Assembly: GCA_964640955.1 (NCBI GenBank)
Contig: CAZXJI010000005.1
Location: forward strand, 65,768-129,767
DNA from: an uncultured Oscillospiraceae bacterium
GTDB lineage: Bacteria > Bacillota > Clostridia > Christensenellales > Aristaeellaceae
Length of the DNA stretch: 64,000 bases
Reading direction: 5' to 3'
Numbering within the stretch: position 1 is the stretch's first letter; the number at the start of each line of letters is the position of its first letter. A program made the translations under genes and the position numbers. Under the pieces are notes generated by a model. That model did no database searches. It was not told the DNA's origin and worked only from the letters and a program-made list of their open reading frames with translations. Positions 46,567 to 64,000 of this stretch are shown one piece after another.

Positions 46567-48180
46567 TTACGCTTTGCCGTCCCGGTTTTTCACCGCCGCG
46601 CCCACGAACTCCCTAAACAGCGGATGCGGGCGGTTGGGGCGGCTTTTGAGTTCCGGGTGGAACTGCACGCCCACGAAGAAGGGATGGCCCGGCATCTCCA
46701 CGATCTCCACCAGGTTGCGGTCGGGGTTGCGCCCGGCAATCACCATGCCCCCCGCCATGAAGCGGTCGAGATACTCGTTGTTGAACTCGTAGCGGTGGCG
46801 GTGGCGCTCCCAGATATCGTTTACGCCGTAGGCGCGCTCACTCACCGTGCCCGGCGCGATGAGGCAGCGGTACTTGCCCAGGCGCATGGTGCCGCCCAGG
46901 TTGCCCAGGTCCTGATCGGCCATCAGGTCGATGACGGGATAGGTGGTGTGGGGGTCGACCTCGGTGGTGTGCGCGTCCCGCATTTCCAGCACGTGGCGGG
47001 CAAACTCGATCACCGCCATCTGCATGCCCAGGCACAGGCCCAGGAAGGGCAGCCCGTTCTCCCGCGCGTACTGTATGGCGGTCATCTTGCCTTCCAGCCC
47101 GCGGGCGCCGAAGCCGCCGGGCACGACCAGGCCGTTGACGCCGGAGAGAATCTCCTCCACGTTTTCGGGGGTCACGTCCTCGGCGGGCACCCAGTTGACT
47201 TTCACCTTCACGCCGTGGTGGATGCCCCCGTGGGTCAGCGCTTCCACCACGCTCAGGTAGGCGTCGGGAAGCTCCACGTATTTGCCCACCAGCGCGACGG
47301 TCACGCTGGTCTCGCTTTCCATCTGCCGCTGAACCATGGCTTTCCACTCGGTCAGGTCGGCTTCCCGGGCGGGGAGGTTCAAAAGCTTCACCACCTGCTC
47401 GTCCAGCCCCTCGTTATGCAAAAGCAGGGGCACTTCGTACAGGCAGCGGGCGTTCAGGTTTTGAAAAACGCGCTCCACGGGCAGGTTGCAGAACATACTG
47501 ATCTTGGCGCGCAGCTCGTAGGGCAGCTCGTGGTCGGCGCGGCACACCAGAATATCCGGCGCGATGCCGATGCCGCTCAACTCCTTCACGCTGTGCTGCG
47601 TGGGCTTGGTTTTCAGCTCCCCGGCGGCGTTTAGGTACGGCACGAGGGTCACGTGCAGATAGAGGCAGTTTTCGCGGCCGACCTCGGCGCGCATCTGGCG
47701 GATGGCCTCCAGAAAAGGAAGGCTTTCGATGTCGCCCACCGTGCCGCCGATTTCGGTAATCACGACGTCCGGTGCGTTCTCGGTGCGGCTGACGGCCAGT
47801 ATGTTTCGTTTGATTTCGTTGGTGATGTGCGGAATCACCTGTATGGTGGCGCCCAGGTATTCGCCGCGGCGTTCGCGGTCGATAACGGTCTTGTACACGC
47901 GGCCGCTGGTCACGTTGCTGGCCTGCGTCAGGCTTTCGTCGATGAAGCGCTCGTAGTGGCCCAGGTCGAGGTCGGTTTCGGCGCCGTCGTCGGTGACGAA
48001 CACCTCCCCGTGCTGGTAGGGGTTCATGGTGCCGGGGTCGACGTTCAGGTAGGGGTCGAACTTCTGGATGGAGACCCTTAGCCCCCGGCTTTTGAGCAGC
48101 CGCCCCAGCGACGCGGCCGTGATGCCCTTGCCCAGCGAGGAAACCACGCCGCCCGTGACAAAAATAAATTTCGTGTCCAT
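46567..48180 (-). CDS. pyrG: CTP synthase
   Basis: Internal ATG after AAGGAGG ([26 protein letters not shown]...). Glutamine amidotransferase motif GLCLGMQ...HRHRYE. Confidence 0.95.
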
Positions 48181-48218
48181 ACGAAGTTCCGCCTCCTTCG
48201 TGAAATCAAACAAACTAT

Positions 48219-48247
48219 ATTCTATCAAACCCCCCCTGTTTCGTCAA
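48219..48247 (-). promoter_or_regulatory. SigA-type promoter of pyrG
   Basis: Minus strand TTGACG-17 nt-TAGAAT, about 35 nt upstream of the ATG. Confidence 0.55.
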
Positions 48248-48364: not shown

Positions 48365-49588
48365 TTATTTACGCGGCACCGGGCAGCTGGACGGCGGAGG
48401 CATGGCCTGCCCGATCTCGCCGGATTTGGTGAGGGCGTATTTGGTAATCACGGGGCCGACCAGCTCGTAGATCAGCGTTCCGGCCAGGACGATCGCCTGT
48501 ATCTGGTGGCCGTAGGCCGGAAGGCGGATAATGGCCAGCTGCGCCATGCCGATGGCGACGCCGGCCTGCGGGATCAGCGTAAGGCCCAGGTATTTCTGCA
48601 CGTTGGGGTGCGCCTTCACCAGGCGGGAGCCGACCATCGCGCCGGTCCACTTGCCCAAAACGCGCATGATGATGTAGCAAATCCCCACGATGCCCACCGT
48701 GGGCAGCACGCTCAGGTTGAGGTCCATGCCGGAGATGACGAAGAACAGCAGGAACACCGGCGGGGTGAAACGGTCGGTCTGCTCGATGATGACGTTGGAA
48801 GCATGGGAAACGTTGGTCATCACCGCACCCAGCATCATCATGCACAGAAGGCTGGACAGGTTCCAGCGGATGCACAGCGCCAGAGACAGGAAGATGAAAG
48901 CGATCGTCAGCGCCAGTTTGTTGCCGCGCGAGGCGAAGAACCGGGCGAAGAAGCTCAACAGAAAGCCGAACGCCGCGCCCAGCGCCAGCGAGCCGGTAAT
49001 CTCCAGAAGCGGATCCAGAAACATGCTCATGAAGGTCAGGGGCCCGCCGCTGGCGAAGGCCTGGGCGATGTTCATGGACACCGCGAAGGCGATCAGCCCT
49101 ACGGCGTCGTCCATGGCGACCACGGGCAGGAGCATTTCGCTTACGGGACCCTTGGCCTTGTACTGGCGGATCACCATCAGGGTCGCGGCCGGGGCGGTGG
49201 CGGCGGCGATGGAGCCCAGCGCCACGGACATGGGCAGCGAAAAGCCGGGCACGCCCAGAACGGTGCACAGGATCAGCGTCACGTCCACGAAAAGCACGGC
49301 GGTCAGGGACTCGAAAGCCGTGATGGTCAGGGGCTTGGCGCCGATTTTGCGAATGTAGCTCAGCTTGAACTCGGCCCCGATGGAATAGGCGATGAAGCCC
49401 AGGGCGACTTCCGTGATGATGGCGAAGGAATCGGCGGTCCCCTGGGGGATCAGACCCAGCACGGACGGGCCGACCACCAAACCGCCGATCAGGAATCCGG
49501 TTACGTTGGGCAGATGGATGAGCTTGGCGAAGCGGCTGAAAAGCAGGCCCACGCCGATGGCGAGGGCCAGCGCGAGGAGGGTGTTCAT
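48365..49588 (-). CDS. cation:proton antiporter (CPA2 / Na_H_Exchanger family), no RCK domain
   Basis: 407 aa, about 12 TM segments. N-terminus MNTLLALALAIGVGLLFSRFAKLIHLPNVTGFLIGGLVVGPSVLG is typical of Kef/NapA-type antiporters. Confidence 0.85.
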   Translation of the reverse strand: MNTLLALALAIGVGLLFSRFAKLIHLPNVTGFLIGGLVVGPSVLGLIPQGTADSFAIITEVALGFIAYSIGAEFKLSYIRKIGAKPLTITAFESLTAVLFVDVTLILCTVLGVPGFSLPMSVALGSIAAATAPAATLMVIRQYKAKGPVSEMLLPVVAMDDAVGLIAFAVSMNIAQAFASGGPLTFMSMFLDPLLEITGSLALGAAFGFLLSFFARFFASRGNKLALTIAFIFLSLALCIRWNLSSLLCMMMLGAVMTNVSHASNVIIEQTDRFTPPVFLLFFVISGMDLNLSVLPTVGIVGICYIIMRVLGKWTGAMVGSRLVKAHPNVQKYLGLTLIPQAGVAIGMAQLAIIRLPAYGHQIQAIVLAGTLIYELVGPVITKYALTKSGEIGQAMPPPSSCPVPRK

Positions 49589-49932
49589 TGGTGGCAGCCC
49601 TCCATCCCCTCGGCGTATAAAACCGGCATGGCGAACATAACCCCGGTGTCGGGCCTGTCAAGCCCGCCGGTCACTTCGTTTACGATATCGCGCACCTTCT
49701 GGGCCTGATCGTCCTCCAGCACCATCATCAGCGTTTTGCTGCTGCGGCGCTCCGGGTCGAACAGGTGGCGCAGCGCGCCGAACATGGGCGCGTCGTCGCC
49801 CCGCTGGTCGAGCACGCGCATCATGCCGGTGCTCTCCAGAATGGTCGCGCCGTGCGCGCCGCATTCCAGCAGCCTTTCCAGAAGCGGTTCCAGGCATTCC
49901 GTTTTGCTCAATACGAGAAAAAAGACCTGCAT
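49585..49932 (-). CDS. small PII-like protein (putative regulator), translationally coupled to the antiporter
   Basis: 115 aa. The hydrophobic/helical pattern fits a beta-alpha-beta-beta-alpha-beta PII-like fold with a long loop (TGMMRVLDQRGDDAPMFGALRHLFDPERRS). ATGA overlap with the antiporter start. Confidence 0.55.
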   Translation of the reverse strand: MQVFFLVLSKTECLEPLLERLLECGAHGATILESTGMMRVLDQRGDDAPMFGALRHLFDPERRSSKTLMMVLEDDQAQKVRDIVNEVTGGLDRPDTGVMFAMPVLYAEGMEGCHQ

Positions 49933-49993
49933 TCGATCACCTTCATTTTCCTTTTCAATGGGATCCGTATGACGTTCACGTTCTAACTATTTC

Positions 49994-50022
49994 ATCATAG
50001 TCCCGAAACAAGAAAAATGCAA
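49994..50022 (-). promoter_or_regulatory. candidate promoter of the PII-like/antiporter operon
   Basis: Minus strand TTGCAT-17 nt-TATGAT. Confidence 0.5.
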
Positions 50023-50077
50023 GGGCTGGGCGGATTTCCATCCCTCTGGCAGGAAAAAACCGCGGGGGAACTTCGTT

Positions 50078-50106
50078 TTGATTTTTCGCGGTATTCATAG
50101 TATGAT
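50078..50106 (+). promoter_or_regulatory. candidate promoter of the phosphonate operon
   Basis: TTGATT-17 nt-TATGAT, 35 nt upstream of the ppd ATG. Confidence 0.5.
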
Positions 50107-50140
50107 AACCGTATCGAAAGCGGATCAAGAGGTGCGCAGA

Positions 50141-51280
50141 ATGGATGCGAGGGTGTTTCTTGGCGGTCTTTCCCGGCTCGGGGTGGATTTTTATACCGGC
50201 GTGCCGGATTCGCTCCTGCGCCCGCTGAACGACGCGCTGGCCGGCGATTACGGGCTTGGGGGCGCGCACGTCGTGGCGGCGGACGAGGGCGGCGCGGTGG
50301 CGCTGGCGGCGGGGCACTATATCGCCACGGGCCGGCCCGCGCTGGTGTATATGCAAAACAGCGGCCTGGGCAACGCCGTGAACCCCGTGTGCTCGCTGCT
50401 CAACGGCCGGGTGTACGGCATCCCCTGCGTGTTCGTGGTCGGCTGGCGCGGCGAGCCGGGCGCCGGCGACGAGCCCCAGCACGCCTTTCAGGGTGAGATA
50501 ACGCGGGAACAGCTGGCGCTTTTGGAAATCGCCGTGTTCGAGCTGTCCACCCAAACCGACGCGGCCGCGTTCGACGTGATGCTCGCGGATTGCGCGCCGC
50601 TGCTGGCCTCGGGCCGGAGCGTGGCGTTTCTGGTGCACAAGGGCGGCCTCGCGGGGCCAACCGATCCGCCGCCCATAAACGGGCGCGCCCTGCTGAGGGA
50701 AGAGGCGCTTAAAACTCTGCTGGCCGCCATGGGACCGTCGGATATCGCGGTGTCCACCACGGGCAAAACCTCCCGCGAGGTGTACGAGCTGCGCGAGGCG
50801 CTCGGGCAGGGCCATGCGCACGATTTTCTGACCGTCGGCTCCATGGGCCACGCGAACATGATCGCGCTGGGCATGGCCAAGGCCCGGCCGGAGCGCCTTT
50901 TCTGGTGTCTGGACGGGGACGGTGCGGCGCTGATGCACCTGGGCGGGCTGGCCGTGGAGGTGCAGCAGGACTGTCGAAACCTGATCCACGTGGTGCTCAA
51001 CAACGGCGCGCACGAGAGCGTGGGCGGCATGCCGGTGGCGGGGGGCTCGTTTCGCTTTGCGCCGGTGGCGCGGGCCGCGGGCTATCCAAACGTGTTCACC
51101 GCCGAAACGGCGGCCGGGCTGGCCGATGCGGCGCGGGAGGCGCGCGAAGCGGCGACCGGGGGCCCCTGCTTTGTGGAGGCGCTGCTGCGCCAGGGCTCCC
51201 GCGCCGACCTGGGACGACCCGGGCAGACGCCCAAAGAGAACCTGCGCGCTCTGATGGACGAACTCGGCGGGGAGGCGTAA
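50141..51280 (+). CDS. ppd: phosphonopyruvate decarboxylase (Ppd/Fom2/AepY type)
   Basis: Internal ATG (MDARVFLGGLSRLGVDFYTGVPDSLLRPL...). Single-chain TPP enzyme of about 380 aa with TPP motif GDG-x25-NN (LDGDGAALMHLG...VVLNNGAHES). Confidence 0.88.
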   Translation: MDARVFLGGLSRLGVDFYTGVPDSLLRPLNDALAGDYGLGGAHVVAADEGGAVALAAGHYIATGRPALVYMQNSGLGNAVNPVCSLLNGRVYGIPCVFVVGWRGEPGAGDEPQHAFQGEITREQLALLEIAVFELSTQTDAAAFDVMLADCAPLLASGRSVAFLVHKGGLAGPTDPPPINGRALLREEALKTLLAAMGPSDIAVSTTGKTSREVYELREALGQGHAHDFLTVGSMGHANMIALGMAKARPERLFWCLDGDGAALMHLGGLAVEVQQDCRNLIHVVLNNGAHESVGGMPVAGGSFRFAPVARAAGYPNVFTAETAAGLADAAREAREAATGGPCFVEALLRQGSRADLGRPGQTPKENLRALMDELGGEA

Positions 51281-51283
51281 GGG

Positions 51284-52015
51284 ATGCAGGCGCTGATCCT
51301 CAACTCCGGCGTCGGGCGGCGCATGGGAGAGACGACGAAACACAGCCCCAAGGGCATGGTGGAGATCGGCGGGGGGTATACCATCCTGAGCCGCCTGCTC
51401 ACCCAGCTTGCGCGCGCGGGCGTCCGGGACGTGACGATCACCACCGGGCCGTTTTGCGAAAAGCTCCGCGCCCACGCGGAGGGGCTTGGACTGCCCCTGA
51501 CCCTCCGGTACGGACATAACCCCGATTACGAAACCACCAACTACATCGTGAGCATCTGCTGCGCCGCGCCGCTTTTGACCGGGGACGACCTGCTTTTGTT
51601 CCACGGCGATCTGGTGCTGGAGGGCGGCGTGCTGGCCGACCTGATGCGGGCGGAAAACAACGCGGTGGCCGTCGACCGCGCGTTGCCCCTGCCGAAAAAG
51701 GACTTTAAGGCGCGCATCGCGGACGGCCGGGTGACGGCGGTGGGCGTGGCGTTTTTCGGGGCCGACTGCGCGGCCTGCCAGCCGGCCTACCGCTGGCGGC
51801 GGGCGGATTTCGAAACGTGGCTGGACGCCATGCGGGCGTTCGTCGCCCGCGGCGAAACCGGCGTGTATGCCGAAAACGCCTTCAACGCGCTGAACGGCGC
51901 GCTGCCGCTGTACCCGCTGGAACTGAACGGCCGCCTCTGCGCCGAGATCGACGACACGGACGACCTGCGCGCGGTGGGCGCGCGCTTCCTTCAAACGCTC
52001 GCGGCCGAGCCGTAA
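51284..52015 (+). CDS. LicC/PntC-like nucleotidyltransferase
   Basis: N-terminal LILNSGVGRRMGETTKHSPKGMV (GxGxR...K NTP-transferase signature). 243 aa. Starts 3 nt after the ppd stop. Confidence 0.75.
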   Translation: MQALILNSGVGRRMGETTKHSPKGMVEIGGGYTILSRLLTQLARAGVRDVTITTGPFCEKLRAHAEGLGLPLTLRYGHNPDYETTNYIVSICCAAPLLTGDDLLLFHGDLVLEGGVLADLMRAENNAVAVDRALPLPKKDFKARIADGRVTAVGVAFFGADCAACQPAYRWRRADFETWLDAMRAFVARGETGVYAENAFNALNGALPLYPLELNGRLCAEIDDTDDLRAVGARFLQTLAAEP

Positions 52016-52045
52016 GGCCCGTGCCGCGCAAAAGGCAGGGATTTC

Positions 52046-53341
52046 ATGAAAACCGTTTACATGTGCTTCAGCACCGATATTCTGCACAGCGGGCACGTCG
52101 CCATCCTCCGCCGCGCCGCGGCGCTGGGGGAGCTGACCGTGGGGGTGCTGACGGACGAGGCCATCGCCACCTACAAGCGCTATCCGCTCGTACCGCTGGC
52201 CGACCGCATCGCGCTGTTTGAAAGCATCGGCGGCGTGAGCCGGGTGGTGACGCAGGATACGCTCAGCTACCGGGGCGCGATCGAGGCGCTTAAGCCGGAT
52301 ATCGTGGTGCACGGCGACGACTGGCGCACCGGCGTGCAAAGCGGCGTGCGCGCCGAGGTGAAGGCGCTGCTGGCTGCCTACGGCGGGGAACTGGTCGAGT
52401 TTCCCTACACGCACGGCGCGGCCGAGGAGGCCGCCGCAGCGCTCGACTCCCGCCTCAACATGCCGGAGTACCGGCGCGGCAGGCTCAAGCGCCTCATGCA
52501 GCTCAAGCCCTGCCTGAGCGTGATGGAGGCCCACAACGGCCTGACCGGGCTGATTGTGGAAAACGCGCGCGTGGATACGCCGGAGGGCGTCAAGACCTTC
52601 GACGCCATGTGGGTGAGCAGCCTGTGCGATTCGACCGTCAAGGGCCGCCCGGATATCGAACTGGTGGACATCACCAGCCGCATCCATACCCTGGAGGAGA
52701 TCATGGAGGTCACCTCCAAGCCCATCATCCTGGACGGGGACACGGGCGGGCAGACGGAACATTTCGTGTACAACCTGCGCACGCTGGAACGACTGGGCGT
52801 GAGCGCCGTGATCATCGAGGACAAGGTGGGGCTGAAGCGCAACTCGCTGTTCGGCGCCGACGCGGGGCAGACGCAGGCCGACCCGGAGACCTTCTGCGAA
52901 AAGATCGCCGCGGGTAAGAAGGCGCAGCGCAGCAGGGATTTTATGATCTTCGCGCGCTGCGAAAGCCTGATCCTACAAAAAGGCATGGAGGACGCGCTGG
53001 CCCGCTGCCGCGCGTACGTCGAGGCCGGCGCCGACGGCGTGATGATCCACAGCTGCCGCAAAACCCCGGACGAGGTGTACGAGTTTCTGCGTCTTTTCCG
53101 CGAAACGAACCCCGCCGCGCCCGTGGTGGTGGTGCCCACCACCTACAATACGGCCACCGAGGCGGAACTGTGCGCCCGGGGTGCGAACATCGTCATTCAC
53201 GCCAACCACCTGCTGCGCAGCGCCTTCCCCGCCATGGAAAAGACGGCGGAGCTCACGCTGCGCAACGGCCGCACGCTGGAAGCGGACGGGCTGTGCATGC
53301 CCATCCGCGACATCCTCTCGCTGATCCCCACGGAGAAATAA
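52046..53341 (+). CDS. ppm: bifunctional cytidylyltransferase-like domain / phosphoenolpyruvate phosphomutase (Fom1-like)
   Basis: The N-terminal roughly 135 aa carry the HxGH motif (FSTDILHSGHVAILRRAA). The C-terminal isocitrate-lyase-fold domain has DGDTGG and the PEP-mutase-diagnostic EDKX5NS motif (EDKVGLKRNS). Confidence 0.9.
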   Translation: MKTVYMCFSTDILHSGHVAILRRAAALGELTVGVLTDEAIATYKRYPLVPLADRIALFESIGGVSRVVTQDTLSYRGAIEALKPDIVVHGDDWRTGVQSGVRAEVKALLAAYGGELVEFPYTHGAAEEAAAALDSRLNMPEYRRGRLKRLMQLKPCLSVMEAHNGLTGLIVENARVDTPEGVKTFDAMWVSSLCDSTVKGRPDIELVDITSRIHTLEEIMEVTSKPIILDGDTGGQTEHFVYNLRTLERLGVSAVIIEDKVGLKRNSLFGADAGQTQADPETFCEKIAAGKKAQRSRDFMIFARCESLILQKGMEDALARCRAYVEAGADGVMIHSCRKTPDEVYEFLRLFRETNPAAPVVVVPTTYNTATEAELCARGANIVIHANHLLRSAFPAMEKTAELTLRNGRTLEADGLCMPIRDILSLIPTEK

Positions 53342-53406
53342 GGTAAGAGCCGCGGTAAAAACGGCCGTGGCAACGGGCTTTCATTTTTCGCATACGGAGG
53401 AACGCC

Positions 53407-54546
53407 ATGCTGATGCCTTTCTGCCCGGTGGACGTACAAATCCTCGCCGACGGGAACGCCGCCGCGGCCGCCCTGCGGGCGCGGCTGAACCCGAATCAGG
53501 ATATCCTGTTTTTGGCTTCCGACGGCCGTTTTGAGGCGCTCAGGCTGGACCTGTTCGTGAACGCGCTGCAGGAGGACGGCCACAGGGTGCTTCGGTACGC
53601 GGATATCACCCCCAACCCCGCGCTTGCCGACGTGGCAAAGCTGCTTTCTTTCTTGTCGGCCAACGCCTTTGTGCCCACGGCGGTCGTCGCGGCGGGCGGA
53701 GGCAGCTGCATCGATCTGGGCAAGGCCGCCTGCGCGCTGTGCGGCCTGCCGCCTGCGCATACTTCGGCCGCGGTGCGGGAGGCGCTGCGAACGCACGCTT
53801 ACGAGCGGCCGCACGCGCGCCCCGGCCTGTACGCCCTGCCCACCACCGCGGGCACGGGCAGCGAGGTAACGCGCTGGGCCACGCTGTGGGACCCTGAGGA
53901 GAATAAAAAGCTTTCGCTGGATTATGCGGGCGGCTTTCCCAAAGCCGCGCTGCTGGTGCCGGCGTGGATGCGCGGCATGGGCGCGGAGCTTACGCTGGCC
54001 ACCGGGCTGGACGCGCTCTCCCACGCGATGGAGGCGTACTGGGCCGCGGCGCGGGAGCCGCTTTCCCAGGAGCTTGCGCTTGCGGCCGTCGCGAAAATAC
54101 GGGATGCCCTGCCGCTTTCGCTGGCCGACGCGGACGCCCCCGCGCCGCGCCGCGAGCTGGCGATGGGGTCACTGCTGGCGGGGCTGGCCTTTTCCCGCAC
54201 GCGCACGACCGCCTGCCACAGCATCAGCTATCCGCTCACTTTGCTTTTCGGCGTGCCGCACGGCTTCGCCGCGGCGATGGCCCTTTCCTCGGTGTTGCGC
54301 CGCAACCGCGCGGCCGTGCCGGAGCTAAACCGGCTGGACGCGCTTTTTGACGAGTACGAGGGCTTTGACGCGTGGATGGAGCGCGCGGCGCGGGGCGTGC
54401 GCCCGCTTAGGCTGTCCGCCTTCGGCATCGCCGAGGGCGACCTGCCCGCGATCCGCGACCTGGCGAGCACGCCGGGGCGCATGGACAACAATCCCGTGGC
54501 GTTTTCGCCGGACGAACTGCTGGAAATCCTCCGGGAGAACCTTTAG
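53407..54546 (+). CDS. iron-containing (group III) alcohol dehydrogenase, probable phosphonoacetaldehyde reductase (PhpC/FomC-like)
   Basis: GGGSCIDLGKA nucleotide-binding motif. Metal His motifs LDALSHAMEAY and TACHSISYPL. Last gene of the cassette. Confidence 0.8.
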   Translation: MLMPFCPVDVQILADGNAAAAALRARLNPNQDILFLASDGRFEALRLDLFVNALQEDGHRVLRYADITPNPALADVAKLLSFLSANAFVPTAVVAAGGGSCIDLGKAACALCGLPPAHTSAAVREALRTHAYERPHARPGLYALPTTAGTGSEVTRWATLWDPEENKKLSLDYAGGFPKAALLVPAWMRGMGAELTLATGLDALSHAMEAYWAAAREPLSQELALAAVAKIRDALPLSLADADAPAPRRELAMGSLLAGLAFSRTRTTACHSISYPLTLLFGVPHGFAAAMALSSVLRRNRAAVPELNRLDALFDEYEGFDAWMERAARGVRPLRLSAFGIAEGDLPAIRDLASTPGRMDNNPVAFSPDELLEILRENL

Positions 54547-54814
54547 CCGCAGCCTTTCGCACAAGCTAACAAAAAGCTAACAAAATGGGCAAAAACCGAA
54601 AACGGGAGCGAAAAGCGCGTATTTTCGGACGAAACACGACCGAAAACGCGGCGCTTTTCTGCCCCCGTAAAGACCGTTTTCATGGAACGAATGGAAAAAC
54701 AAAGAACAGACAATGCAAAAATGCGCAGATTTTGCTTGACAAACGCTTCTTCCGGATGTTAGGATTAGTAAAGCTAATCGTAAGCTTAACAAACTAACAA
54801 ACGGAGGGAAAAAC

Positions 54815-56173
54815 ATGAAGAAGCTCCTGGGAATCCTGCTGAGCGTCGCGCTCCTGTTCACCATGGCGACCTTCGCGACCGCGGAAGCGTCGCTGCCCAA
54901 CTTCCTCGACCTGACGGTCGGCGAGGATTACACCGACCTGAACGTCACCATCAAGTACATCACCCACCGCACCGACCTGGTTACCAGCAGCACCACCTAT
55001 CAGGATCTCTACATCGCCGAGTTCAACAAGCTCTATCCGGGCATCACCGTGGAGCTGGAAGCCGTTACCGATTTCGCGCAGGACGCGCTCGTGCGCCTGA
55101 CCGGCTCGGACGACTGGGGCGACGTGATGAACATCCCCCAGGTGGAAAACAGCGAGTTCGGCACCTACTTCCTGCCCTACGGCACGGTGGCGGACATGAG
55201 CGCCTACATCAACTTCGCCGACGCCAAGCAGTTCGACGGCCTGTGCTACGGCATCCCCACGACCGCCAACTTCCAGGGCGTGCTTTACAACAAAGCCGTC
55301 TTTGAGGCCGCCGGCGTCACCGACATTCCCCGCACCCCCGAAGCCTTCCTGGAAGCGCTTCAGAAGGTTAAAGACAACACCGACGCCATCCCGCTGTATA
55401 CCAACTACGCCGCCGGCTGGACGATGGGCGCGTGGGACTTCTACGCGGGCGTGGGCGCCACCGGCGACCCGGACTTCGTCAACATCGACATGATCTCCAT
55501 GAAGGATCCTTTCGCCGCGCGCGAGGACGGCGCGGGCCCCTACGCCGTGTACAAGATCCTCTACGACGCGACCGCGCAGGGCCTGATCGAGGACGACTAC
55601 ACCACCACCGACTGGGAAGGCTGCAAGGCGATGCTCAACAACGGCCAGATCGCCACCATGATGCTGGGCTCCTGGGCGTACGTGCAGATGCGCGATGCCG
55701 TGGGCGGCGAGCATCCCGAGGACGTGGCCTACATGCCCTTCCCGCTGACGGTGGACGGCCAGCAGTATGCGCTCTCCGCCGCGGACTACTGCTACGGCAT
55801 CAACGCCAAGACCGATACCGATCACCAGATCGCCTCCATGCTGTTCGTGAAGTTCATGGTGGAAAAGAGCGGCTTTAACGTCAACGAGGGCGGCTCTCCC
55901 GTGCTGATCGGCGAATCCTTCCCGGATTTCGCTTCCTCCTTCGAGGGCGTGACCATGCTTTCCGACACCATGGTGGACGGCGAGCAGGCGCAGCTGGTGG
56001 ACGACATCAACGCCGATTCCACGCTGATGTTCGCCAAAAGCGGCAACGAGAAGATTCAGAAGATCATCGAGCATGCGTTCAACGGCGACATGAGCTACGA
56101 CGACATCATGGCTTCCTGGAACGCGCTGTGGAGCGACGCGCAGGAAAGCCTGGGCGTGACCGTGACGGAATAA
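54815..56173 (+). CDS. extracellular sugar-binding protein (family 1 SBP)
   Basis: GGAGGG RBS. Signal peptide MKKLLGILLSVALLFTMATFATA|EA with no Cys. 452 aa. Confidence 0.85.
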   Translation: MKKLLGILLSVALLFTMATFATAEASLPNFLDLTVGEDYTDLNVTIKYITHRTDLVTSSTTYQDLYIAEFNKLYPGITVELEAVTDFAQDALVRLTGSDDWGDVMNIPQVENSEFGTYFLPYGTVADMSAYINFADAKQFDGLCYGIPTTANFQGVLYNKAVFEAAGVTDIPRTPEAFLEALQKVKDNTDAIPLYTNYAAGWTMGAWDFYAGVGATGDPDFVNIDMISMKDPFAAREDGAGPYAVYKILYDATAQGLIEDDYTTTDWEGCKAMLNNGQIATMMLGSWAYVQMRDAVGGEHPEDVAYMPFPLTVDGQQYALSAADYCYGINAKTDTDHQIASMLFVKFMVEKSGFNVNEGGSPVLIGESFPDFASSFEGVTMLSDTMVDGEQAQLVDDINADSTLMFAKSGNEKIQKIIEHAFNGDMSYDDIMASWNALWSDAQESLGVTVTE

Positions 56174-56209
56174 CCGACCCGCGAACCGACAATACGCGAT
56201 CGAAAGCAG

Positions 56210-56239
56210 AGGCCGGGGGGCTTCCCCCCGGCCTGTTTT
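56210..56239 (+). other. terminator-like stem-loop between the SBP and permease genes
   Basis: AGGCCGGGGGG-CTT-CCCCCCGGCCT followed by GTTTT. Confidence 0.6.
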
Positions 56240-56270
56240 CCCAGAACGGACCGGAAAGGAGCGGCGGGAT

Positions 56271-57260
56271 ATGAACGCAATCCATCCCCCCACGCCCGCG
56301 GACGCCCGGCGGGGCGGTTTCAGCGTATGGTTGCGCAGGCCGGCCACCCAGAAGGGCCTGGTCATCTTCACCTTCGCGGTGGTGCCGGTGTTTCTGCTGG
56401 CGATGTTCACCTATTACCCCTTCGTGAAGATGGTGCAGTACAGCTTTTTCAAGATGAGCTACACCAAGGTGCGGGGCTTCGTGGGGCTTGACAACTACCG
56501 GGACATCTTCAGCAAGCCGGAGCTGCTGGCCACCTTCCGCATCAGCCTCTACTACATGGCGGGGGCGATCGTGCAGATCGCGCTGGCGCTGTACTTCGCC
56601 ACGGTGCTGAGCTTCAAGACCCGGGGCAAGGGGTTTTACAAGGGCGCGATGTTCTTTCCCTACCTCATCAACGGCATCGCCATCGGCTTCATTTTCAAAT
56701 ACTTCTATACCCGCGGCTATGTGCTGGACTCCGTTTTGGGCCTTTTCGGCATTCCGCTGGACAGCCTGCCCTACTGGCTGCGCGACCAGAGCATCAACAA
56801 CTGGTCGCTGGTGGGGACGTCCGTGTGGAAATACATGGGGCAGAACATGGTGCTCTTTTCCGGCGCGATTATGAGCGTCGACCCGAATTTGTACGAAGCC
56901 GCCGCCATCGACGGTGCGAATAAATGGCATCAGTTCAAAAACATCATCCTGCCGAGCATCTCCACGGTGCTGGTGCTCAACGTGATCCTTTCCATCACGG
57001 GCTCGCTGAGCGCGTTCGAGCCGCCCTACGTCATCACCTCCATGGGGGGCAACGGCACGGCGACCTATTTCATCAAAATGCACGAAACGGCGCACACCCT
57101 GCACAAGGTCGGGCTCGCCTCGGCCATGGCGGTGGTGCTGATCCTCATCATCATCCTGGTGACGGTCGTGCAGAAGCTGCTGTTCAAGTACGCTTTCCGC
57201 GACGCGAACACCGACGGCGTGGGCCGTTCGGCCGCGCGCGCGGCCAGGGAGGCGAAATAG
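56271..57260 (+). CDS. sugar ABC transporter permease (MalF/UgpA type)
   Basis: EAA loop EAAAIDGANKWHQFKNIILPSI; 6 TM segments. Confidence 0.87.
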   Translation: MNAIHPPTPADARRGGFSVWLRRPATQKGLVIFTFAVVPVFLLAMFTYYPFVKMVQYSFFKMSYTKVRGFVGLDNYRDIFSKPELLATFRISLYYMAGAIVQIALALYFATVLSFKTRGKGFYKGAMFFPYLINGIAIGFIFKYFYTRGYVLDSVLGLFGIPLDSLPYWLRDQSINNWSLVGTSVWKYMGQNMVLFSGAIMSVDPNLYEAAAIDGANKWHQFKNIILPSISTVLVLNVILSITGSLSAFEPPYVITSMGGNGTATYFIKMHETAHTLHKVGLASAMAVVLILIIILVTVVQKLLFKYAFRDANTDGVGRSAARAAREAK

Positions 57261-57261
57261 G

Positions 57262-58110
57262 ATGGGTGTGGAACGGTCGTTTAAGGATTACGTGCTGAAG
57301 TTCTTCAAGCACCTTTCCCTTCTGTTCATGTCGCTTACGTGCATCCTGCCGGTGGCCTCCTGCGTGATTGGCGCGTTCAAAACCAAGGAGGAGTTCGCCA
57401 CCTCCAGCAAGATCGCCTTTCCGCAGAACTGGGCGAACCTGGACAACTTCGTCAAGTTCTGGAACGAAAGCGGCATCGGGCAGGGCTTCGCGACGTCGCT
57501 ATTGGTGATGCTGGTGACCATCACGCTTTCGGTGATGATGGGCGCGATGCTGGCCTACGTCCTCAACCGCTTCCGCTTTCCCGGCAACCACCTGATTCGC
57601 AACGCCTTCCTGCTGGCGGCGCTCGTGCCGACCATCACCATGCAGGTGACCATCTACAAGCTGATGATCACCTTAAAGCTGGTGGATACGCTGGTCGGCT
57701 ACATCATCCTGCAGACGGGGACGGACGTCATCTCCATCTACATTCTTTTGCAGTATTTCGAAAATCTGTCCATATCGCTGGACGAATCGGCGATCCTGGA
57801 AGGGTGCACGTATTACGGCGTGTTTTTCAAAATCCTGCTGCCCCTGCTCAAGCCCGCGGTGGTCACCTGCATGATCCTCAAGGGCGTGATGATCTACAAC
57901 GAGTATTACAACGCCAACCTGTACCTGCAAAGCAAGGACAAGTACAAGACCGTTTCCACCGCGCTGTACGTGTACCTGGGCCCCACCAAGAGCCAGTACG
58001 AAATGATCTGCGCGGGCGTGCTCATCTGCATCGTGCCGATCCTGCTGATTTTTCTGGTGTTCCAGCGGGAAGTGTACAGCGGCATGACCAACGGCGCGGT
58101 GAAGGGGTAG
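57262..58110 (+). CDS. sugar ABC transporter permease (MalG/UgpE type)
   Basis: EAA loop ESAILEGCTYYGVFFKILLPLL. Starts 1 nt after the upstream stop. Confidence 0.87.
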   Translation: MGVERSFKDYVLKFFKHLSLLFMSLTCILPVASCVIGAFKTKEEFATSSKIAFPQNWANLDNFVKFWNESGIGQGFATSLLVMLVTITLSVMMGAMLAYVLNRFRFPGNHLIRNAFLLAALVPTITMQVTIYKLMITLKLVDTLVGYIILQTGTDVISIYILLQYFENLSISLDESAILEGCTYYGVFFKILLPLLKPAVVTCMILKGVMIYNEYYNANLYLQSKDKYKTVSTALYVYLGPTKSQYEMICAGVLICIVPILLIFLVFQREVYSGMTNGAVKG

Positions 58111-58135
58111 GCGGCCCCGGAGGCGGAAAGGACGG

Positions 58136-59317
58136 ATGCGGATGGACCTGAAACGGGAAGCGCGGGCGCATTTGGAGCAGAAGCTGATCCCCTTCTGGCA
58201 GGCGCTGCGCGACGGGGAGAACGGCGGATATTACGGCCGGGTGGACTTCGACCTGACGGTCGACCCCCGGGCGCCCAAGGGATGCATCCTGAACAGCCGC
58301 ATCCTGTGGTTTTTCGCCCGCGCCTACGAGCTGCTCGGCGACCGGGAGCTGCTGAACTGCGCGCGGCACGCCTACGATTTTCTCGCCCGCTTCCGCGACG
58401 GGGAAAACGGCGGGCTGTACTGGTCGGTCGCCTTCGACGGAACGCCGCTGGACACGCAGAAGCACACCTACGCCCAGGCGTTCGCCATCTACGGCCTCGC
58501 CGCCTACGCGTCGGCCTCGGGGGACGAACGGGCGCTTGCGGAGGCGACGGCACTTTACGAGCTGATCGAAACCCGCATGCGGGACGAGAACGGCTATCTG
58601 GAAGCGTTCGACCGCGCGTTTCGGCCGTTTACCAACGCGAAGCTCAGCGACAACCCCAAGCTGACCGCCCGCGGGGTGATCGCCGAAAAGACGATGAACA
58701 CGCTTCTACACGTACTGGAAGCGTACACCCTGCTCTACCGGGTCGGGCGGGACGCACGCGTGCTGGCGAGCCTGCGCGCGCTCTTGCTGACGCTTATGCA
58801 AATGGTGTATAATCGGGAAGCAAACCGGCTGGAAGTCTTTTTCGACGCGCGGATGCGCTCGATTTTCGACATGCAGAGCTACGGGCACGATATCGAAGCC
58901 TCCTGGTTGATCGACCTGGCGGCGCAAACGGCCCGGAACCCCGCCGAGCGCGCCCACACGGAAGCGGTCACCACGGCGCTGGCCGAGGGCGTCATGGAGC
59001 GCGCCTGGCGGGAGCACAGCCTGCTCAATGAGCGCACGGAGGGCGAGGACGACGGGACCCGCGTGTGGTGGGTGCAGGCGGAGACGATGGTGGGGCTTTG
59101 CAACCTGTGGCAAAAAACGGGCGACGCCCGCTGGCGGAGCGCCATGGAGGACACGTGGGCGTTCATCATGGCCCGGCTGGTCGACCCCCGCGAGGGCGGC
59201 GAGTGGTACTGGTGCCTCACCCCGGGCGGGGAGGTGTGCGCGCGGCCGATCGTGGAGCCGTGGAAATGCCCTTATCACAACGGGCGCATGTGCATGGAAC
59301 TGATGACGCGCCTCTGA
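58136..59317 (+). CDS. N-acylglucosamine 2-epimerase (AGE) superfamily; probable cellobiose/mannobiose 2-epimerase
   Basis: LIPFWQALRDGENGGYYG, RILWFFARAY, KHTYAQAFAIYGL, EKTMNTLLHVLEAY and CPYHNGRMCME patterns of the (alpha/alpha)6 AGE fold. Sits next to GH130 genes. Confidence 0.8.
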   Translation: MRMDLKREARAHLEQKLIPFWQALRDGENGGYYGRVDFDLTVDPRAPKGCILNSRILWFFARAYELLGDRELLNCARHAYDFLARFRDGENGGLYWSVAFDGTPLDTQKHTYAQAFAIYGLAAYASASGDERALAEATALYELIETRMRDENGYLEAFDRAFRPFTNAKLSDNPKLTARGVIAEKTMNTLLHVLEAYTLLYRVGRDARVLASLRALLLTLMQMVYNREANRLEVFFDARMRSIFDMQSYGHDIEASWLIDLAAQTARNPAERAHTEAVTTALAEGVMERAWREHSLLNERTEGEDDGTRVWWVQAETMVGLCNLWQKTGDARWRSAMEDTWAFIMARLVDPREGGEWYWCLTPGGEVCARPIVEPWKCPYHNGRMCMELMTRL

Positions 59318-59343
59318 CGGGCGCATGGGAGGGAACGGAGCGG

Positions 59344-61011
59344 ATGACGGCTCAGAAACGGGCGGCCGAGTGGGCGACGCTTGCGCGCTTCGACGCGGAG
59401 ACGCGCGCCGAGGCGGCGCGGATTGCAAACGACCCGGAGGAACTGGCCCGCGCCTTTGGAAGCGAGCTTTCCTTCGGCACCGGCGGGCTGCGCGGGGTGC
59501 TGGGAACGGGCACCAACCGCATGAACGCCTATACCGTCGCGCGGGCGACGGCGGGGCTCGCGGATACGCTGCGCGCGCGGGGCGGCCGGAGCGTCGCCAT
59601 TTCGTACGATTCACGCCACGGCTCCGCGGCCTTCGCGGGGATCGCGGCGGGGACGCTGGCGGCCTGCGGCCTGCGGGCCTACCTGTTCGACCGGCTCATG
59701 CCCACGCCCGTGCTCTCCTTCGCGACGCGGACGCTTCGCGCGGACGCGGGGGTAATGATCACCGCCAGCCACAACCCCGCCGAATACAACGGCTACAAGG
59801 TATACGGCGCGGACGGCTGCCAGATTACCGACGCGGCGGCGGAGGAGATTACCGCGGCGATCGAAAAGCGGGACTACGCCGGGCTTTCGTGGCTTTCCGA
59901 GGCCGAGGCGCGCGCGGCGGGCCTGCTTGCGGACGTGCCCGCTTCGGTGACGGAAGCATACCTGCAAAAGACGCTCGCCTGCCGGGTGCACCCGGACGCC
60001 TGCGCGCCGGTCACGGTGTGCTACACCCCGCTCAACGGCGCGGGCCTTGTGCCGGTGCGCGAGGCGCTTGGGTCGATGCGCGGCGTAACCGTGGCCGTCG
60101 TGGAAGCGCAGGCCGCGCCGGACGGGGACTTTCCCACCTGCCCCAAGCCCAATCCGGAACTGCTGCCCACGCTGGCGCTGGCCATTCGTACGGCAAAGGA
60201 GGCCGGCGCCGATCTGGTGATCGCCACCGACCCGGACAGCGACCGCATCGGCGTGGCCGTGCGGGACGACCGGGGGGAGTTCGTCCGCCTGACGGGCAAC
60301 GAGGTGGGCCTGCTGCTTCTCGAATCCATCCTCAAGGCCCGGCGGGACGCGGGCACATTGCCCGCGTCGCCCGAAGTGGTCAAGACCATCGTGACCAGCG
60401 ACCTGGCGTTCTCCGTCGCGGCGGCGTACGGCGCTGTGGTCAGGGAAACGCTGACCGGCTTCAAGTATATCGGCGAGGAGATCGGCCGGCTGGAGAAGCG
60501 GGGCGAGGCGGGGCGCTTCGTGTTCGGCTTTGAGGAGAGCTGCGGATATCTGTGCGGCACGCACGTGCGCGACAAGGACGGCGTGCTGGCGGCGGTGCTG
60601 GTATGCGAGTTGGCGCAGGCGGCCGCGGCGGAGGGCCGCACGCTGCTCGACCTGCTGAACGATCTGTACGCGCGCTTCGGGCGGCTGGAAACGCGGCTGC
60701 TCAGTTTCGACCTGACCGGGACCGACCCCATGGCAGACATGCGCCGGTCCATGGAAAAGCTGCGCGCGGTTCCGCCCGAGACCCTCGCGGGCGCGCCCGT
60801 GACCGGGCGCAAGGACTACCGACCGGGCCTGGACGGCCTGCCGCCCGCGGACGTGCTGACCTTCGCGTGTGAACGGGGCAAGGCGATCGTGCGGCCGTCG
60901 GGCACGGAGCCCAAGGTGAAGGTCTATCTGTCCGCGCCGGGCCGGACGGCCGCGCAGGCCGAGGAGGCGCTCGACGCCATGGAGGCGGACGCGCGCGGCT
61001 GGCTTGCGTAA
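59344..61011 (+). CDS. phosphoglucomutase/phosphomannomutase family protein
   Basis: Internal ATG (MTAQKRAAEW...). FGTGGLRG; active-site Ser loop ITASHNPAEYNGYK; Mg loop ATDPDSDR; sugar loop GFEESCGY. Confidence 0.9.
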   Translation: MTAQKRAAEWATLARFDAETRAEAARIANDPEELARAFGSELSFGTGGLRGVLGTGTNRMNAYTVARATAGLADTLRARGGRSVAISYDSRHGSAAFAGIAAGTLAACGLRAYLFDRLMPTPVLSFATRTLRADAGVMITASHNPAEYNGYKVYGADGCQITDAAAEEITAAIEKRDYAGLSWLSEAEARAAGLLADVPASVTEAYLQKTLACRVHPDACAPVTVCYTPLNGAGLVPVREALGSMRGVTVAVVEAQAAPDGDFPTCPKPNPELLPTLALAIRTAKEAGADLVIATDPDSDRIGVAVRDDRGEFVRLTGNEVGLLLLESILKARRDAGTLPASPEVVKTIVTSDLAFSVAAAYGAVVRETLTGFKYIGEEIGRLEKRGEAGRFVFGFEESCGYLCGTHVRDKDGVLAAVLVCELAQAAAAEGRTLLDLLNDLYARFGRLETRLLSFDLTGTDPMADMRRSMEKLRAVPPETLAGAPVTGRKDYRPGLDGLPPADVLTFACERGKAIVRPSGTEPKVKVYLSAPGRTAAQAEEALDAMEADARGWLA

Positions 61012-61050
61012 CCGCGGGGACATCCCCAGTTCAGCAACGGAGAGTGCGGC

Positions 61051-62082
61051 ATGAAACAAAACGTCAACATGAGGGCCATCGGGCGAGCGCTGGGCGTAAG
61101 CGCCGTAACGGTCAGCAAGGCGCTTGCGGGCCGCAGCGGCGTAAGCGAAGCCGTGCGGGAGCGCATCGTGCGCAAGGCGCAGGAGATGGGCTACCGCTAC
61201 GATCTGGTTGCCAAGGCCCCGCGGGAAAGCCGGGGGGACGTGGGTATCCTGATCGCCGACCACTTCCTGGGACAGGGCAACAGCTTTTATGCGTCGCTGT
61301 GCAAAAAGCTGGTGCAACAGCTGGGCGAGCGCAGCTGCTACGGGGTGCTGAGCATCCTCAGCGAGGAGGAGGAGCTGACCGGCGGCTACCCGGATATTCT
61401 GGGCGGCGGCCGGGTGAACGGGCTGGTGATTCTGGGGCAGGTGCACCGGGATTATATCCGCATGCTCGAATCGGTGGGAACGAACGTCCCCTATATTTTC
61501 ATGGATTTTTACGACGAGCGCGCCAACGCCGACGCGGTCGTCAGCGACGGTCTCTACGGCGGTTACCGGCTGGCCAGCCACCTGATCCACATGGGGCATA
61601 CGCGCATCGGCTTCGTGGGCTCCATCAGGGCGACCAGCTCCATTATGGACCGCTATCTGGGCTACTACCGCAGCATGCTCCAGCATGACCTGCCCATCGC
61701 GCCCGAGTGGATCGTCCCCGACCGCGACGAGCACGGCGTGTATAAGGAATTCCCGCTGCCCGATCCGCTGCCCACGGCCTTCGTGTGCAACTGCGACCAG
61801 CTTGCCACCCGGTTCATCCACAGGCTGGAGGGCATGGGGATCGGCGTGCCGGGGGATGTGTCGGTCGTCGGCTTCGACGACTTCGTGGATACGCCTCCCG
61901 GCAAGCCCGCGCTCACCACCTTCGCCGTGGATCAGGACGCGCTGGCCCGCGAGGCGGCGGAGATGATCATTCAGAAGATGCAGGGACGCGGCGAGCGCAT
62001 GGGCCGCGTGGTGACGGGCGGGCACATGGTCTACCGCGACAGCGTGCGCGACCTGCGCCCCGCGGACGCCCGGGACGAATAG
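61051..62082 (+). CDS. LacI-family transcriptional regulator
   Basis: HTH region MRAIGRALGVSAVTVSKALAGRSGVSEAVRERIVRKAQEMGY plus a sugar-binding core. Confidence 0.88.
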   Translation: MKQNVNMRAIGRALGVSAVTVSKALAGRSGVSEAVRERIVRKAQEMGYRYDLVAKAPRESRGDVGILIADHFLGQGNSFYASLCKKLVQQLGERSCYGVLSILSEEEELTGGYPDILGGGRVNGLVILGQVHRDYIRMLESVGTNVPYIFMDFYDERANADAVVSDGLYGGYRLASHLIHMGHTRIGFVGSIRATSSIMDRYLGYYRSMLQHDLPIAPEWIVPDRDEHGVYKEFPLPDPLPTAFVCNCDQLATRFIHRLEGMGIGVPGDVSVVGFDDFVDTPPGKPALTTFAVDQDALAREAAEMIIQKMQGRGERMGRVVTGGHMVYRDSVRDLRPADARDE

Positions 62083-62131
62083 CCGCGGCGGGCCTTCGGG
62101 CTTCGCCGGGGAACGACGAAGGAGAACGACC

Positions 62132-63163: not shown

Positions 63164-63186
63164 GCCGAAGGAGAACCGTAAACGGC

Positions 63187-64000
63187 ATGAAAACCAAAAC
63201 CTTTACCGAGCTGACGGCCGAGTACGAGGCGCTCGTGACGCGCCCCAACGAGGTCAACCCCCGGTTTTACAACGGACTGCTGGAACGCTACCGCTACCCC
63301 GTGCTCACCCGCGAGCACACGCCCCCCTTCTGGATGTACGACCTGAGCCCCGTAACCAACCCCTACGGCATGAAGCGCCTGGACGTGAACGGCGCCTTCA
63401 ACAGCGGCGCGCTGTACCTGAACGGCCGGTACTACCTCGTCGCGCGCGTGGAAGGCGCCGATCGCAAGAGCTTCTTTGCCGTGGCGGAGAGCGGAAGCCC
63501 GACCGAGGGCTTCCGCTACTGGGATTATCCCGTGCGTCTGCCCGACGGCGACGCGGTGGAAACCAACGTGTACGACATGCGCCTCACCCTCCACGAGGAC
63601 GGGTGGATATACGGCGTGTTCTGCTCCGAAAGCAAGGACCCGGCCGATCCCGACCCCACGGCGGCGGTCGCGGCGGCGGGCATCGTGCGCACGCGCGACC
63701 TCAAAACCTGGGAGCGGCTGCCCAACCTCGTTACCTTGCGCTCGCCCCAGCAGCGCAACGTGGTGCTGCACCCGGAGTTCATCCGCGGCCGGTACGCCTT
63801 CTACACCCGGCCGATGGACGGCTTTATTCAAACGGGCTCCGGCGGCGGCATCGGCTTCGGGCTGTGCGACGACGTCACCCGGGCGGTGATCGACGAGGAG
63901 AAGATCATCTCCCCGCGCCGCTACCATACCGTGACCGAGGCGAAAAACGGCGCGGGCGCCGTGCCCATCAAAACGCCCCGCGGGTGGATACACATCGCGC
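63187..64000 (+). CDS. GH130 phosphorylase, 4-O-beta-D-mannosyl-D-glucose-phosphorylase-like (3' truncated by the window edge)
   Basis: Not in the ORF track because no stop is reached. My own translation from ATG 63187 reads [23 protein letters not shown]...[21 protein letters not shown]...[18 protein letters not shown]...NVVLHPEF...PRGWIHIA, open to the end of the window. Confidence 0.8.

Follow-up and report, generated by a model that had tools for sequence, protein, structure and literature searches.

A four-gene operon of an uncultured gut Clostridia bacterium predicted to make and cytidylylate 2-hydroxyethylphosphonate

We analysed a 64-kb stretch of DNA (the window; all coordinates are window positions) from contig CAZXJI010000005.1 of an uncultured Oscillospiraceae bacterium. 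The subject is a cassette of four genes on the + strand that a preliminary description, made from the letters alone, had taken for a compact Fom2/Fom1/FomC-like phosphonate cassette. The genes code for a phosphonopyruvate decarboxylase (Ppd), a PntC/LicC-like nucleotidyltransferase, a fusion of a cytidylyltransferase (CyTase) domain with a phosphoenolpyruvate (PEP) mutase (Ppm) domain, and an iron-dependent alcohol dehydrogenase (ADH). These products are predicted to lead from PEP to 2-hydroxyethylphosphonate (HEP) and to its cytidine monophosphate (CMP) derivative, CMP-HEP, and the neighbours of related cassettes point to the cell envelope as the destination.

The operon and its four products

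The four open reading frames (ORFs; 50078-51280, 51284-52015, 52046-53341 and 53407-54546) are co-directional and are separated, from 5' to 3', by 3, 30 and 65 nucleotides (nt), as had been described. The four gene identities given in the preliminary description were all correct by Pfam and NCBIfam profile matches, every one of its motifs (GDG-x25-NN, HSGH and EDKVGLKRNS) was found, and so was its single promoter-like element ahead of the operon (Table 1). This element lies in the 208-nt gap between Ppd and a divergent P-II-like gene; four promoter-like sites were found in the scanned region and 0.7 were expected from shuffled sequences. At the other end the operon is followed by a hairpin with a minimum free energy of -36.8 kcal/mol and a z-score of -7.0, which none of 200 shuffles equalled and within which inverted repeats were detected, and the next gene downstream has a promoter-like site of its own at 54736-54765. 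Because of the short gaps, the upstream promoter-like site and the downstream hairpin, the four genes look like one isolated transcription unit. An Rfam scan of the whole window gave no matches, and hence no sign of a riboswitch or of a leader RNA. A 928-aa (amino acid) ORF on the other strand (49976-52762, -), which lies opposite Ppd, the PntC-like gene and a portion of Ppm, was rejected as a high-GC shadow frame; its GC by codon position is 0.85/0.47/0.69 and that of the real genes here is about 0.65/0.45/0.87.

Table 1. Features of the phosphonate operon in window coordinates
Feature	Position	Strand	Basis
Promoter-like element, sigma-70-type	50078..50106	+	TTGATT, 17 nt spacer, TATGAT
Phosphonopyruvate decarboxylase, Ppd/Fom2/AepY type, 379 aa	50141..51280	+	TIGR03297, start-codon evidence
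PntC/LicC-like nucleotidyltransferase, 243 aa, free-standing putative cytidylyltransferase	51284..52015	+	PF12804, fold match
Fom1-type CyTase domain, aa 1-126 of fusion	52046..52423	+	PF01467, PDB 5x3d
PEP mutase (Ppm) domain, aa 147-430 of fusion	52484..53335	+	TIGR02320, PF13714
PhpC/FomC-type group III (Fe/Zn) ADH, 379 aa, putative phosphonoacetaldehyde reductase	53407..54546	+	PF00465 + PF25137
Nested hairpin, terminator-like operon end	54602..54668	+	starts 56 nt past ADH stop codon

The first gene product scored 411 bits against the equivalog model TIGR03297 (cut-off 312), has the TPP_enzyme_N and TPP_enzyme_C domains and carries the GDG-x25-NN motif. Its identity as Ppd thus stands; its described start, TTG 50078, probably does not. 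The open frame does reach upstream to this TTG. The promoter-like element, however, begins with this TTG, gene calls made independently on identical metagenome contigs place the start 63 nt further downstream and give a protein of 379 aa, and ATG 50141 is preceded by AAGAGGTG. For these reasons the true start is probably ATG 50141.

The second gene product matched NTP_transf_3 (E 6.5e-11) and, by sequence, the PDB entries of MurU (1.5e-9), PntC (3.4e-6) and LicC (4e-3), all of them distant. Its AlphaFold2 model, with a predicted local distance difference test (pLDDT) score of 94.1, has PntC 6pd2 as its best fold match in the PDB (template modelling score, TM, 0.86; E 2e-16), followed by LicC 1jyk. 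The earlier label of LicC-like is right as to family and can be refined, in that the modelled structure appears closest to the phosphonate-specific PntC with LicC second. The orthologues share the invariant motifs LNSGxGxRMG, HGD (107-109), YAENAFN and LCxEIDxxxD, and His107 is invariant in 79 of them. Characterised PntC enzymes prefer 2-aminoethylphosphonate (AEP), and in Tde-PntC the acidic residues Glu104 and Glu196 are reported to contact the AEP amine (Rice et al. 2019, PMC6697681). In a low-identity alignment Glu104 falls on His107 of the protein studied here, and the position of Glu196 could not be mapped onto it. Since this ligand of the AEP amine is replaced by an invariant histidine, there is a hint in the sequence that the substrate may not be an amine; an AEP transaminase is likewise missing, no aminotransferase having been found among the window genes checked. 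As expected of a PntC, the gene adjoins the Ppm gene here, and in 70 of the 80 related loci described below it has Ppd on one side and Ppm on the other. In five loci (L074 and L077-L080) the ORF that holds Ppm is 668-727 aa long and includes the LicC-like match, and in another (L088) a single protein of 672 aa unites the NTP_transf_3, CTP_transf_like and PEP_mutase domains. When the PntC-like pocket was compared with the presence of the ADH, His107 and all core motifs proved invariant with or without an adjacent ADH, and the few differences between the two groups, at positions 113, 204, 213 and 217, are confounded by phylogeny.

In the third gene the CyTase domain is encoded upstream of Ppm, with CTP_transf_like at aa 11-97 and HSGH at aa 14-17. 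The CyTase domain matched the N-terminal domain of Fom1 (PDB 5x3d) with an E-value of 3.3e-36, 62 of 124 residues (50%) being identical, and the next-best PDB matches were ethanolamine-phosphate cytidylyltransferase (2.8e-11) and TagD (1e-5). Because the match to 5x3d far exceeds these two, the Fom1 likeness that had been described is, as judged by sequence comparison, a specific relationship that goes beyond the common fold. The Ppm domain scored 386 bits against the TIGR02320 equivalog (cut-off 319.55) and 1e-54 against PF13714, and its top PDB matches are the Ppm structures 5unc (1.6e-43) and 1m1b (1e-35). EDKVGLKRNS, at aa 258-267, conforms to EDKX5NS, the motif by which Rice et al. (2019, PMC6697681) set Ppm apart within PF13714, and together with the TIGR02320 score it places the product of 52046..53341 with the PEP mutases. 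Ppd, to which Ppm is coupled to pull its unfavourable equilibrium, is encoded at the head of the operon. The CyTase domain of Fom1 has been reported to convert HEP and cytidine triphosphate (CTP) into CMP-HEP (Cho et al. 2017, as cited in PMC6697681 and PMC9088020), and from this homology and the co-operonic Ppd and PhpC-type ADH the same activity is predicted for the fused domain here.

The fourth gene product is the group III iron alcohol dehydrogenase that had been described, and its nicotinamide adenine dinucleotide (NAD) and metal ligands are present (GGGSCID, fitting GGGSxxD, and D202, H206, H271 and H285). Its best NCBIfam model is TIGR03405 (Phn_Fe-ADH/PsrA) with 223 bits, and the next family, at 142 bits, is 81 lower. 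The best PDB match is 6jko, a sister entry of 6jkp, which is a sulfoacetaldehyde reductase that served as the structural reference for PhpC in a 2026 study; that study also found PhpC-type sequences to be highly divergent, with a mean identity of 39% (PMC13576164).

Related cassettes and genomic surroundings

More than 8000 relatives of the fusion protein are in the databases, and both Pfam domains are present in every one of the 120 best-scoring matches listed. In a scan with one genome per species at least 421 genomes encode a relative; the statistics below refer to the 80 best loci (designated by L numbers), whose neighbours were clustered by BLAST-based single linkage of our own ORF calls, and the taxon names of the carriers are the labels of metagenome-assembled genomes (MAGs). 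Nearly all of these 80 carriers are uncultured Clostridia, the closest being labelled Candidatus Limiplasma or Eubacteriales. The trio of Ppd, PntC-like and CyTase-Ppm genes is complete in 75 of the 80 loci and stands in the identical order in 70, and since this order recurs in different species, the gene arrangement is not due to chance. An Fe-ADH adjoins the trio in 49 loci; in 40 of these it is an orthologue (at least 40% identity) directly downstream of Ppm, and in nine it is divergent, so that clustering of the ADH with ppm and ppd extends well beyond this genome. In 21 loci there is space downstream yet no ADH, and 10 contigs stop too early to judge. The contexts vary, and no other neighbour family occurs in more than 13 of the 80 loci, which marks the cassette as an independent module moving as a unit. 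The closest relatives have the same surroundings as the window, in the order U32 peptidase, PyrG, sometimes an antiporter pair, the cassette and then mannan genes, and no transferase lies near the cassette in these Limiplasma-type loci either. Nine independent metagenome contigs carry the identical protein, which is contained in samples ERR4539292 and ERR4510095. Protein identities of 60-86% across many Limiplasma-type species indicate that the detached four-gene form is under purifying selection. The compact four-gene HEP branch is thus common among gut and digester bacteria of Christensenellales-like and Oscillospiraceae-like affinity, and the cassette is nothing out of the ordinary, its architecture having been catalogued already.

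In at least 32 of the 80 loci one or more envelope-glycopolymer genes lie within 10 kb of the cassette, a lower bound as singleton neighbours were left unannotated. LicD directly adjoins the cassette in four loci (L070, L071, L073 and L075), two of which (L070 and L071) also have an ABC-2 exporter pair; L071 and L075 belong to cultured bacteria, Massiliimalia timonensis Marseille-P3753 and Clostridiaceae bacterium 1XD21-29. Directly upstream of the cassette and co-directional with it, eight loci (L020, L024, L035, L036, L038, L041 and L058, plus L088) encode a protein of 620-700 aa with an N-terminal YidC and a C-terminal TagF-like domain. Further neighbours of this kind are sulfatase/LtaS-like proteins, family 2 glycosyltransferases (GT2), Bac_transf, LytR-CpsA-Psr (LCP) proteins and GDP-sugar enzymes. 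These neighbours of orthologous cassettes in other Clostridia support the proposal that the CMP-HEP of this operon goes into an envelope polymer by way of a transferase whose gene is located elsewhere in the genome.

The YidC-TagF-like protein, whose existing annotation is only that of a membrane protein insertase YidC, recurs in a three-gene module that consists of a large sulfatase/LtaS-like protein, this YidC (60KD_IMP)-TagF-like fusion (about 623 aa) and a protein of 81-84 aa. The module was located in three further contigs (L088, 5495-10190; L089, 6244-10142; L090, 6164-10143) and also upstream of Ppd in the other seven loci just named; in L088 its large first protein has 818 aa and no recorded Pfam hit. 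This module is a candidate CMP-phosphonate transferase or polymerase. That the YidC-TagF-like gene is an obligate partner of the cassette was rejected, as it adjoins the cassette in only one of these three contigs (L088). Its occurrence away from the cassette in L089 and L090 means that the two can be unlinked, as an envelope destination would need in the present genome.

Two other recurrent neighbours should be mentioned. The B12-binding protein encoded upstream of Ppd in eight loci is a MetH-type methionine synthase. In 10 of the loci that have the trio and no ADH (L039, L042, L047, L048, L050, L052, L055, L056, L060 and L061) the genes upstream of Ppd code for a regulator of the AsnC type, an aminotransferase of class I/II and a CapA-like (PGA_cap) protein, with two GT2 genes near some of them; the product of these loci may be another phosphonate, possibly an amino one.

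For the remainder of the window, Pfam was run in four batches that covered 40 window proteins, and tblastn was run with every recurrent neighbour family of the related loci; one 447-aa ORF had no Pfam match, and a few ORFs were read by eye or left unscanned. Among the genes checked, Pfam found no LicD, TagF-like, CDP-alcohol, glycosyl- or aminotransferase and no B12/radical-SAM, DUF402 or cupin protein. Searching the window by tblastn with LicD, YidC-TagF, GT2, LCP and Bac_transf proteins of related loci gave no matches. Neither in the window nor recurrently beside the 80 related cassettes were ATP-grasp, nonribosomal peptide synthetase (NRPS) or resistance genes found. For the genes checked, the described absence of transferase and tailoring genes from the window was therefore borne out. 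The other window genes with Pfam assignments are gyrase A and B, several ABC/oligopeptide transporters, two-component systems, a helicase, LarA, arabinofuranosidases, YlbF, YceG, a U32 peptidase, CTP synthase and the antiporter pair. The 447-aa ORF (5841-7184, +) has a gene-like GC by codon position of 0.65/0.50/0.89 and no Pfam matches at E <=0.01.

The flanks are as had been described, an antiporter operon upstream and a mannan-utilisation locus downstream. Upstream, and divergent from the cassette, a Na+/H+ exchanger gene and a gene for a weakly P-II-like protein of 115 aa form a pair (48365-49932, -) that adjoins the cassette elsewhere too, co-directionally in L009, L012 and L015 and divergently in L001 and L011; no functional link between the pair and the cassette is apparent. 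The gene for PyrG, the CTP synthase (46567-48228, -), lies zero to two genes from the cassette in Limiplasma-type genomes (it is near the cassette in L001, L002, L008, L010, L011, L013 and L085) and on the opposite side in L011. We rejected this adjacency as a link to CTP supply because a single inversion of the block of antiporter and cassette accounts for L011, which makes it a matter of synteny. The mannan locus (54815-64000, +) is of the canonical epimerase/phosphorylase type, is syntenic in the closest relatives, and consists of genes for an ABC binding protein, two permeases, a phosphomannomutase (59266-61011), a LacI-family regulator (61051-62082), two GH130 proteins and a GlcNAc-2-epimerase-family protein (cellobiose/mannobiose epimerase-like). 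Direct repeats of AGCTAACAAA-like units at 54560-54595 and 54788-54812 flank the promoter-like site of the binding-protein gene, and they may be the operator of this LacI-family regulator.

Proposed pathway and alternative explanations

Based on these findings we propose the following pathway. The Ppm domain would turn PEP into phosphonopyruvate, Ppd would decarboxylate this irreversibly to phosphonoacetaldehyde, and the PhpC-type dehydrogenase would reduce the aldehyde to HEP. HEP and CTP would then give CMP-HEP by the action of the Fom1-type CyTase domain, the PntC-like enzyme, or both. Finally, a phosphotransferase of the LicD or TagF type, encoded beyond the window, would place HEP on an envelope glycopolymer with release of CMP. 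Homology to characterised enzymes and the structure of the operon suggest the steps up to CMP-HEP, and the neighbours of orthologous cassettes suggest the last one. We consider it very likely that HEP is produced and likely that CMP-HEP is; that the destination is an envelope glycopolymer seems to us only slightly favoured. Taken as a whole, the proposal that the operon is a self-contained HEP-branch 'phosphonyl tailoring' unit supplying CMP-HEP for the envelope is moderately probable. The preliminary description had suggested that an activated hydroxyethylphosphonate serves a surface modification, and this fits the LicD, YidC-TagF-like, GT2, LCP, Bac_transf and ABC-2 neighbours in other Clostridia, with the chemistry itself being predicted from the genes.

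Several observations weigh against this proposal. No transferase was found in the window or in the closest loci, and the destination relies on distant relatives whose Ppm is 60-72% identical. Two cytidylyltransferases are more than the pathway needs, and their retention in nearly every locus, sometimes as a fusion, is not accounted for; the free-standing PntC-like enzyme, with histidine in place of Glu104, may accept another substrate. The ADH, at 223 bits, falls below the TIGR03405 cut-off of 423.7, and because of this its assignment leans on gene context. The trio is not bound to HEP in every lineage, as the 21 loci that have no adjacent ADH show.

The low score of the ADH raises the question whether this enzyme is a phosphonoacetaldehyde reductase at all. 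If it is not, the product would not be HEP and could be, for example, AEP, which a transaminase encoded elsewhere would form and the PntC-like enzyme would cytidylylate, in keeping with the preference of the PntC enzymes characterised so far (PMC6697681), with the loci that do without an adjacent ADH, and with the class I/II aminotransferase gene that stands two genes upstream of Ppd in 10 of them. We regard this as quite unlikely because an orthologous ADH directly follows the trio in 40 loci and a divergent Fe-ADH is present in nine more, its best family and structure matches are of the PhpC type, the fused CyTase shares 50% identity with the HEP-specific domain of Fom1, and in this genome the window yielded no aminotransferase and the amine ligand of PntC is a histidine. 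Granting HEP and CMP-HEP, the product could still be a soluble small-molecule phosphonate, antibiotic-like or signalling, with its tailoring genes elsewhere and cytidylylation as a transient handle. Such is the use of CMP in the only characterised case of CMP-HEP, that of Streptomyces fosfomycin (PMC9088020), and the lack of a linked transferase in the window and in the closest relatives would agree with it. B12/radical-SAM, DUF402, cupin, ATP-grasp, NRPS and resistance genes are, however, neither found in the window nor recurrent at the 80 cassettes, where the recurrent neighbours are envelope-polymer genes instead, and the carriers, Clostridia of gut, rumen and digester according to their MAG titles, are presumably anaerobes in which the O2-dependent HppE, HEPD and MpnS are implausible. 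This explanation is therefore improbable, and we found no positive support for the undescribed small phosphonate that the preliminary description had offered as its alternative.

In the classical AEP-lipid pathway CMP-activated phosphonates donate lipid head groups, and CMP-HEP might do the same for a phosphonolipid if an enzyme of the CDP-alcohol-phosphatidyltransferase type were encoded elsewhere, with diacylglycerol or ceramide as the acceptor. A lipid modification had been allowed for in the preliminary description, and that the cassette is not linked to glycan genes in this lineage would fit such a role, but the neighbour families that recur around the 80 cassettes (singletons left unannotated) include no CDP-alcohol phosphatidyltransferase, and the LicD, TagF-like, GT2, LCP and ABC-2 exporter genes that do recur are all linked to wall polymers, so that we think this role unlikely as well. 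It could also be argued that a cassette which is embedded in glycopolymer loci in other lineages and detached from any transferase here is all that is left of a larger envelope locus, silent or in decay, and makes no product. Four intact frames with their catalytic motifs, the identical protein on independent contigs, the conservation of the detached form under what appears to be purifying selection, and the promoter-like and terminator-like signals all speak against decay, and we give this explanation hardly any weight. All four explanations are less supported than HEP-branch phosphonyl tailoring.

In a variant of the tailoring proposal, two different cytidylyltransferases are kept because the pathway does more than cap a glycan. 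HEP has a free hydroxyl, and CMP-HEP could for this reason also be used as a monomer, from which a polymerase of the TagF-like kind (the YidC-TagF fusion and its LtaS-like partner would be an example) would build poly(hydroxyethylphosphonate) or a mixed chain, a phosphatase-resistant 'phosphonate teichoic acid', and the second cytidylyltransferase would activate the primer or a co-monomer. We consider this variant very unlikely. Bacterial C-P biosynthesis is believed to serve chiefly the decoration of cell surfaces with phosphonates, and many of its gene clusters carry two cytidylyltransferases. If HEP-modified envelope polymers are indeed common in gut Clostridia, this would be relevant to recognition by phages and the immune system and to phosphorus cycling in the gut. 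The operon, at 4.6 kb, is compact enough for heterologous expression.

Comparison with known systems

The nearest system by enzyme set is Streptomyces fosfomycin biosynthesis. Fom1, Fom2 and FomC resemble the products described here, and the predicted chemistry is alike up to CMP-HEP, as is the CyTase-Ppm order. In fosfomycin biosynthesis Fom3 recognises its substrate by the CMP group, which FomD subsequently removes (PMC9088020). Streptomyces has Fom3 (a B12/radical-SAM methyltransferase), FomD (DUF402), Fom4/HppE and FomA/B, none of which was found in the window, whereas the window has an additional PntC-like transferase that is missing from the fom cluster (fom1-4 and fomA-D, PMC9088020). 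The hosts differ too, a gut Clostridium here and an actinomycete there. Since Fom3, FomD and HppE were not found in the Pfam-scanned window genes, the locus is not a fosfomycin cluster; their domains are not recurrent beside the 80 related cassettes either.

Nucleotidyl activation coupled to Ppm is shared with the Pnt clusters, whose Lic-like logic was proposed by Rice et al. (2019, PMC6697681), and the fold of the 243-aa protein is nearest to that of Tde-PntC. In the same survey PF01467-Ppm fusions made up 23.6% of Ppm proteins, and PF12804 + PF01467 fusions 2.8%. LicD and glycosyltransferases adjoin orthologous cassettes, as in Pnt clusters, but are not linked in this region. The characterised PntC enzymes act on AEP and stand beside an AEP transaminase, whereas here a PhpC-type reductase occupies the branch point and no transaminase was found. 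Without a linked transferase gene, the locus falls short of a complete Pnt, or Lic-like, surface-tailoring locus, whereas in 32 of the 80 related loci that feature is present.

With the HEP-branch neighbourhoods the locus shares the Ppm, Ppd and Fe-ADH signature that predicts HEP. This HEP type (PhpC) accounts for 8.5% of ppm neighbourhoods, and a product is known for only two of 10 PhpC gene-cluster families; these families include the HEP-exopolysaccharide of Stackebrandtia nassauensis and the methylphosphonate cluster of Nitrosopumilus, and one family has yielded a HEP-glycan conjugate (Li and Horsman 2022, PMC8942020). The locus has no MpnS or HEPD-type dioxygenase. Our literature search, which turned up papers on fosfomycin and the two bioinformatic surveys cited here, found no report of CMP-HEP outside fosfomycin biosynthesis, nor of HEP decoration in Firmicutes, and no chemical study of any Clostridia cassette.

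The Lic pathway (LicC/LicD) and the teichoic acid systems TagD/TagF and TarI/TarJ work by the same logic, in which an alcohol phosphate or phosphonate is activated with CTP and transferred to a wall polymer with loss of CMP. The pairing of a reductase with a cytidylyltransferase resembles TarJ/TarI, and LicD and TagF-like genes flank orthologous cassettes. The differences are that the activated group here would be a phosphonate, with a C-P bond, made de novo from PEP and not imported or derived from a sugar phosphate, and that the transferase is unlinked. The locus is thus a detached member of a class that has been catalogued and is chemically uncharacterised (Rice et al. 2019; Li and Horsman 2022). 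The window adds no new principle to this class; what the comparison yields is candidate transferases, namely LicD and the YidC-TagF-like fusion with its LtaS-like partner.

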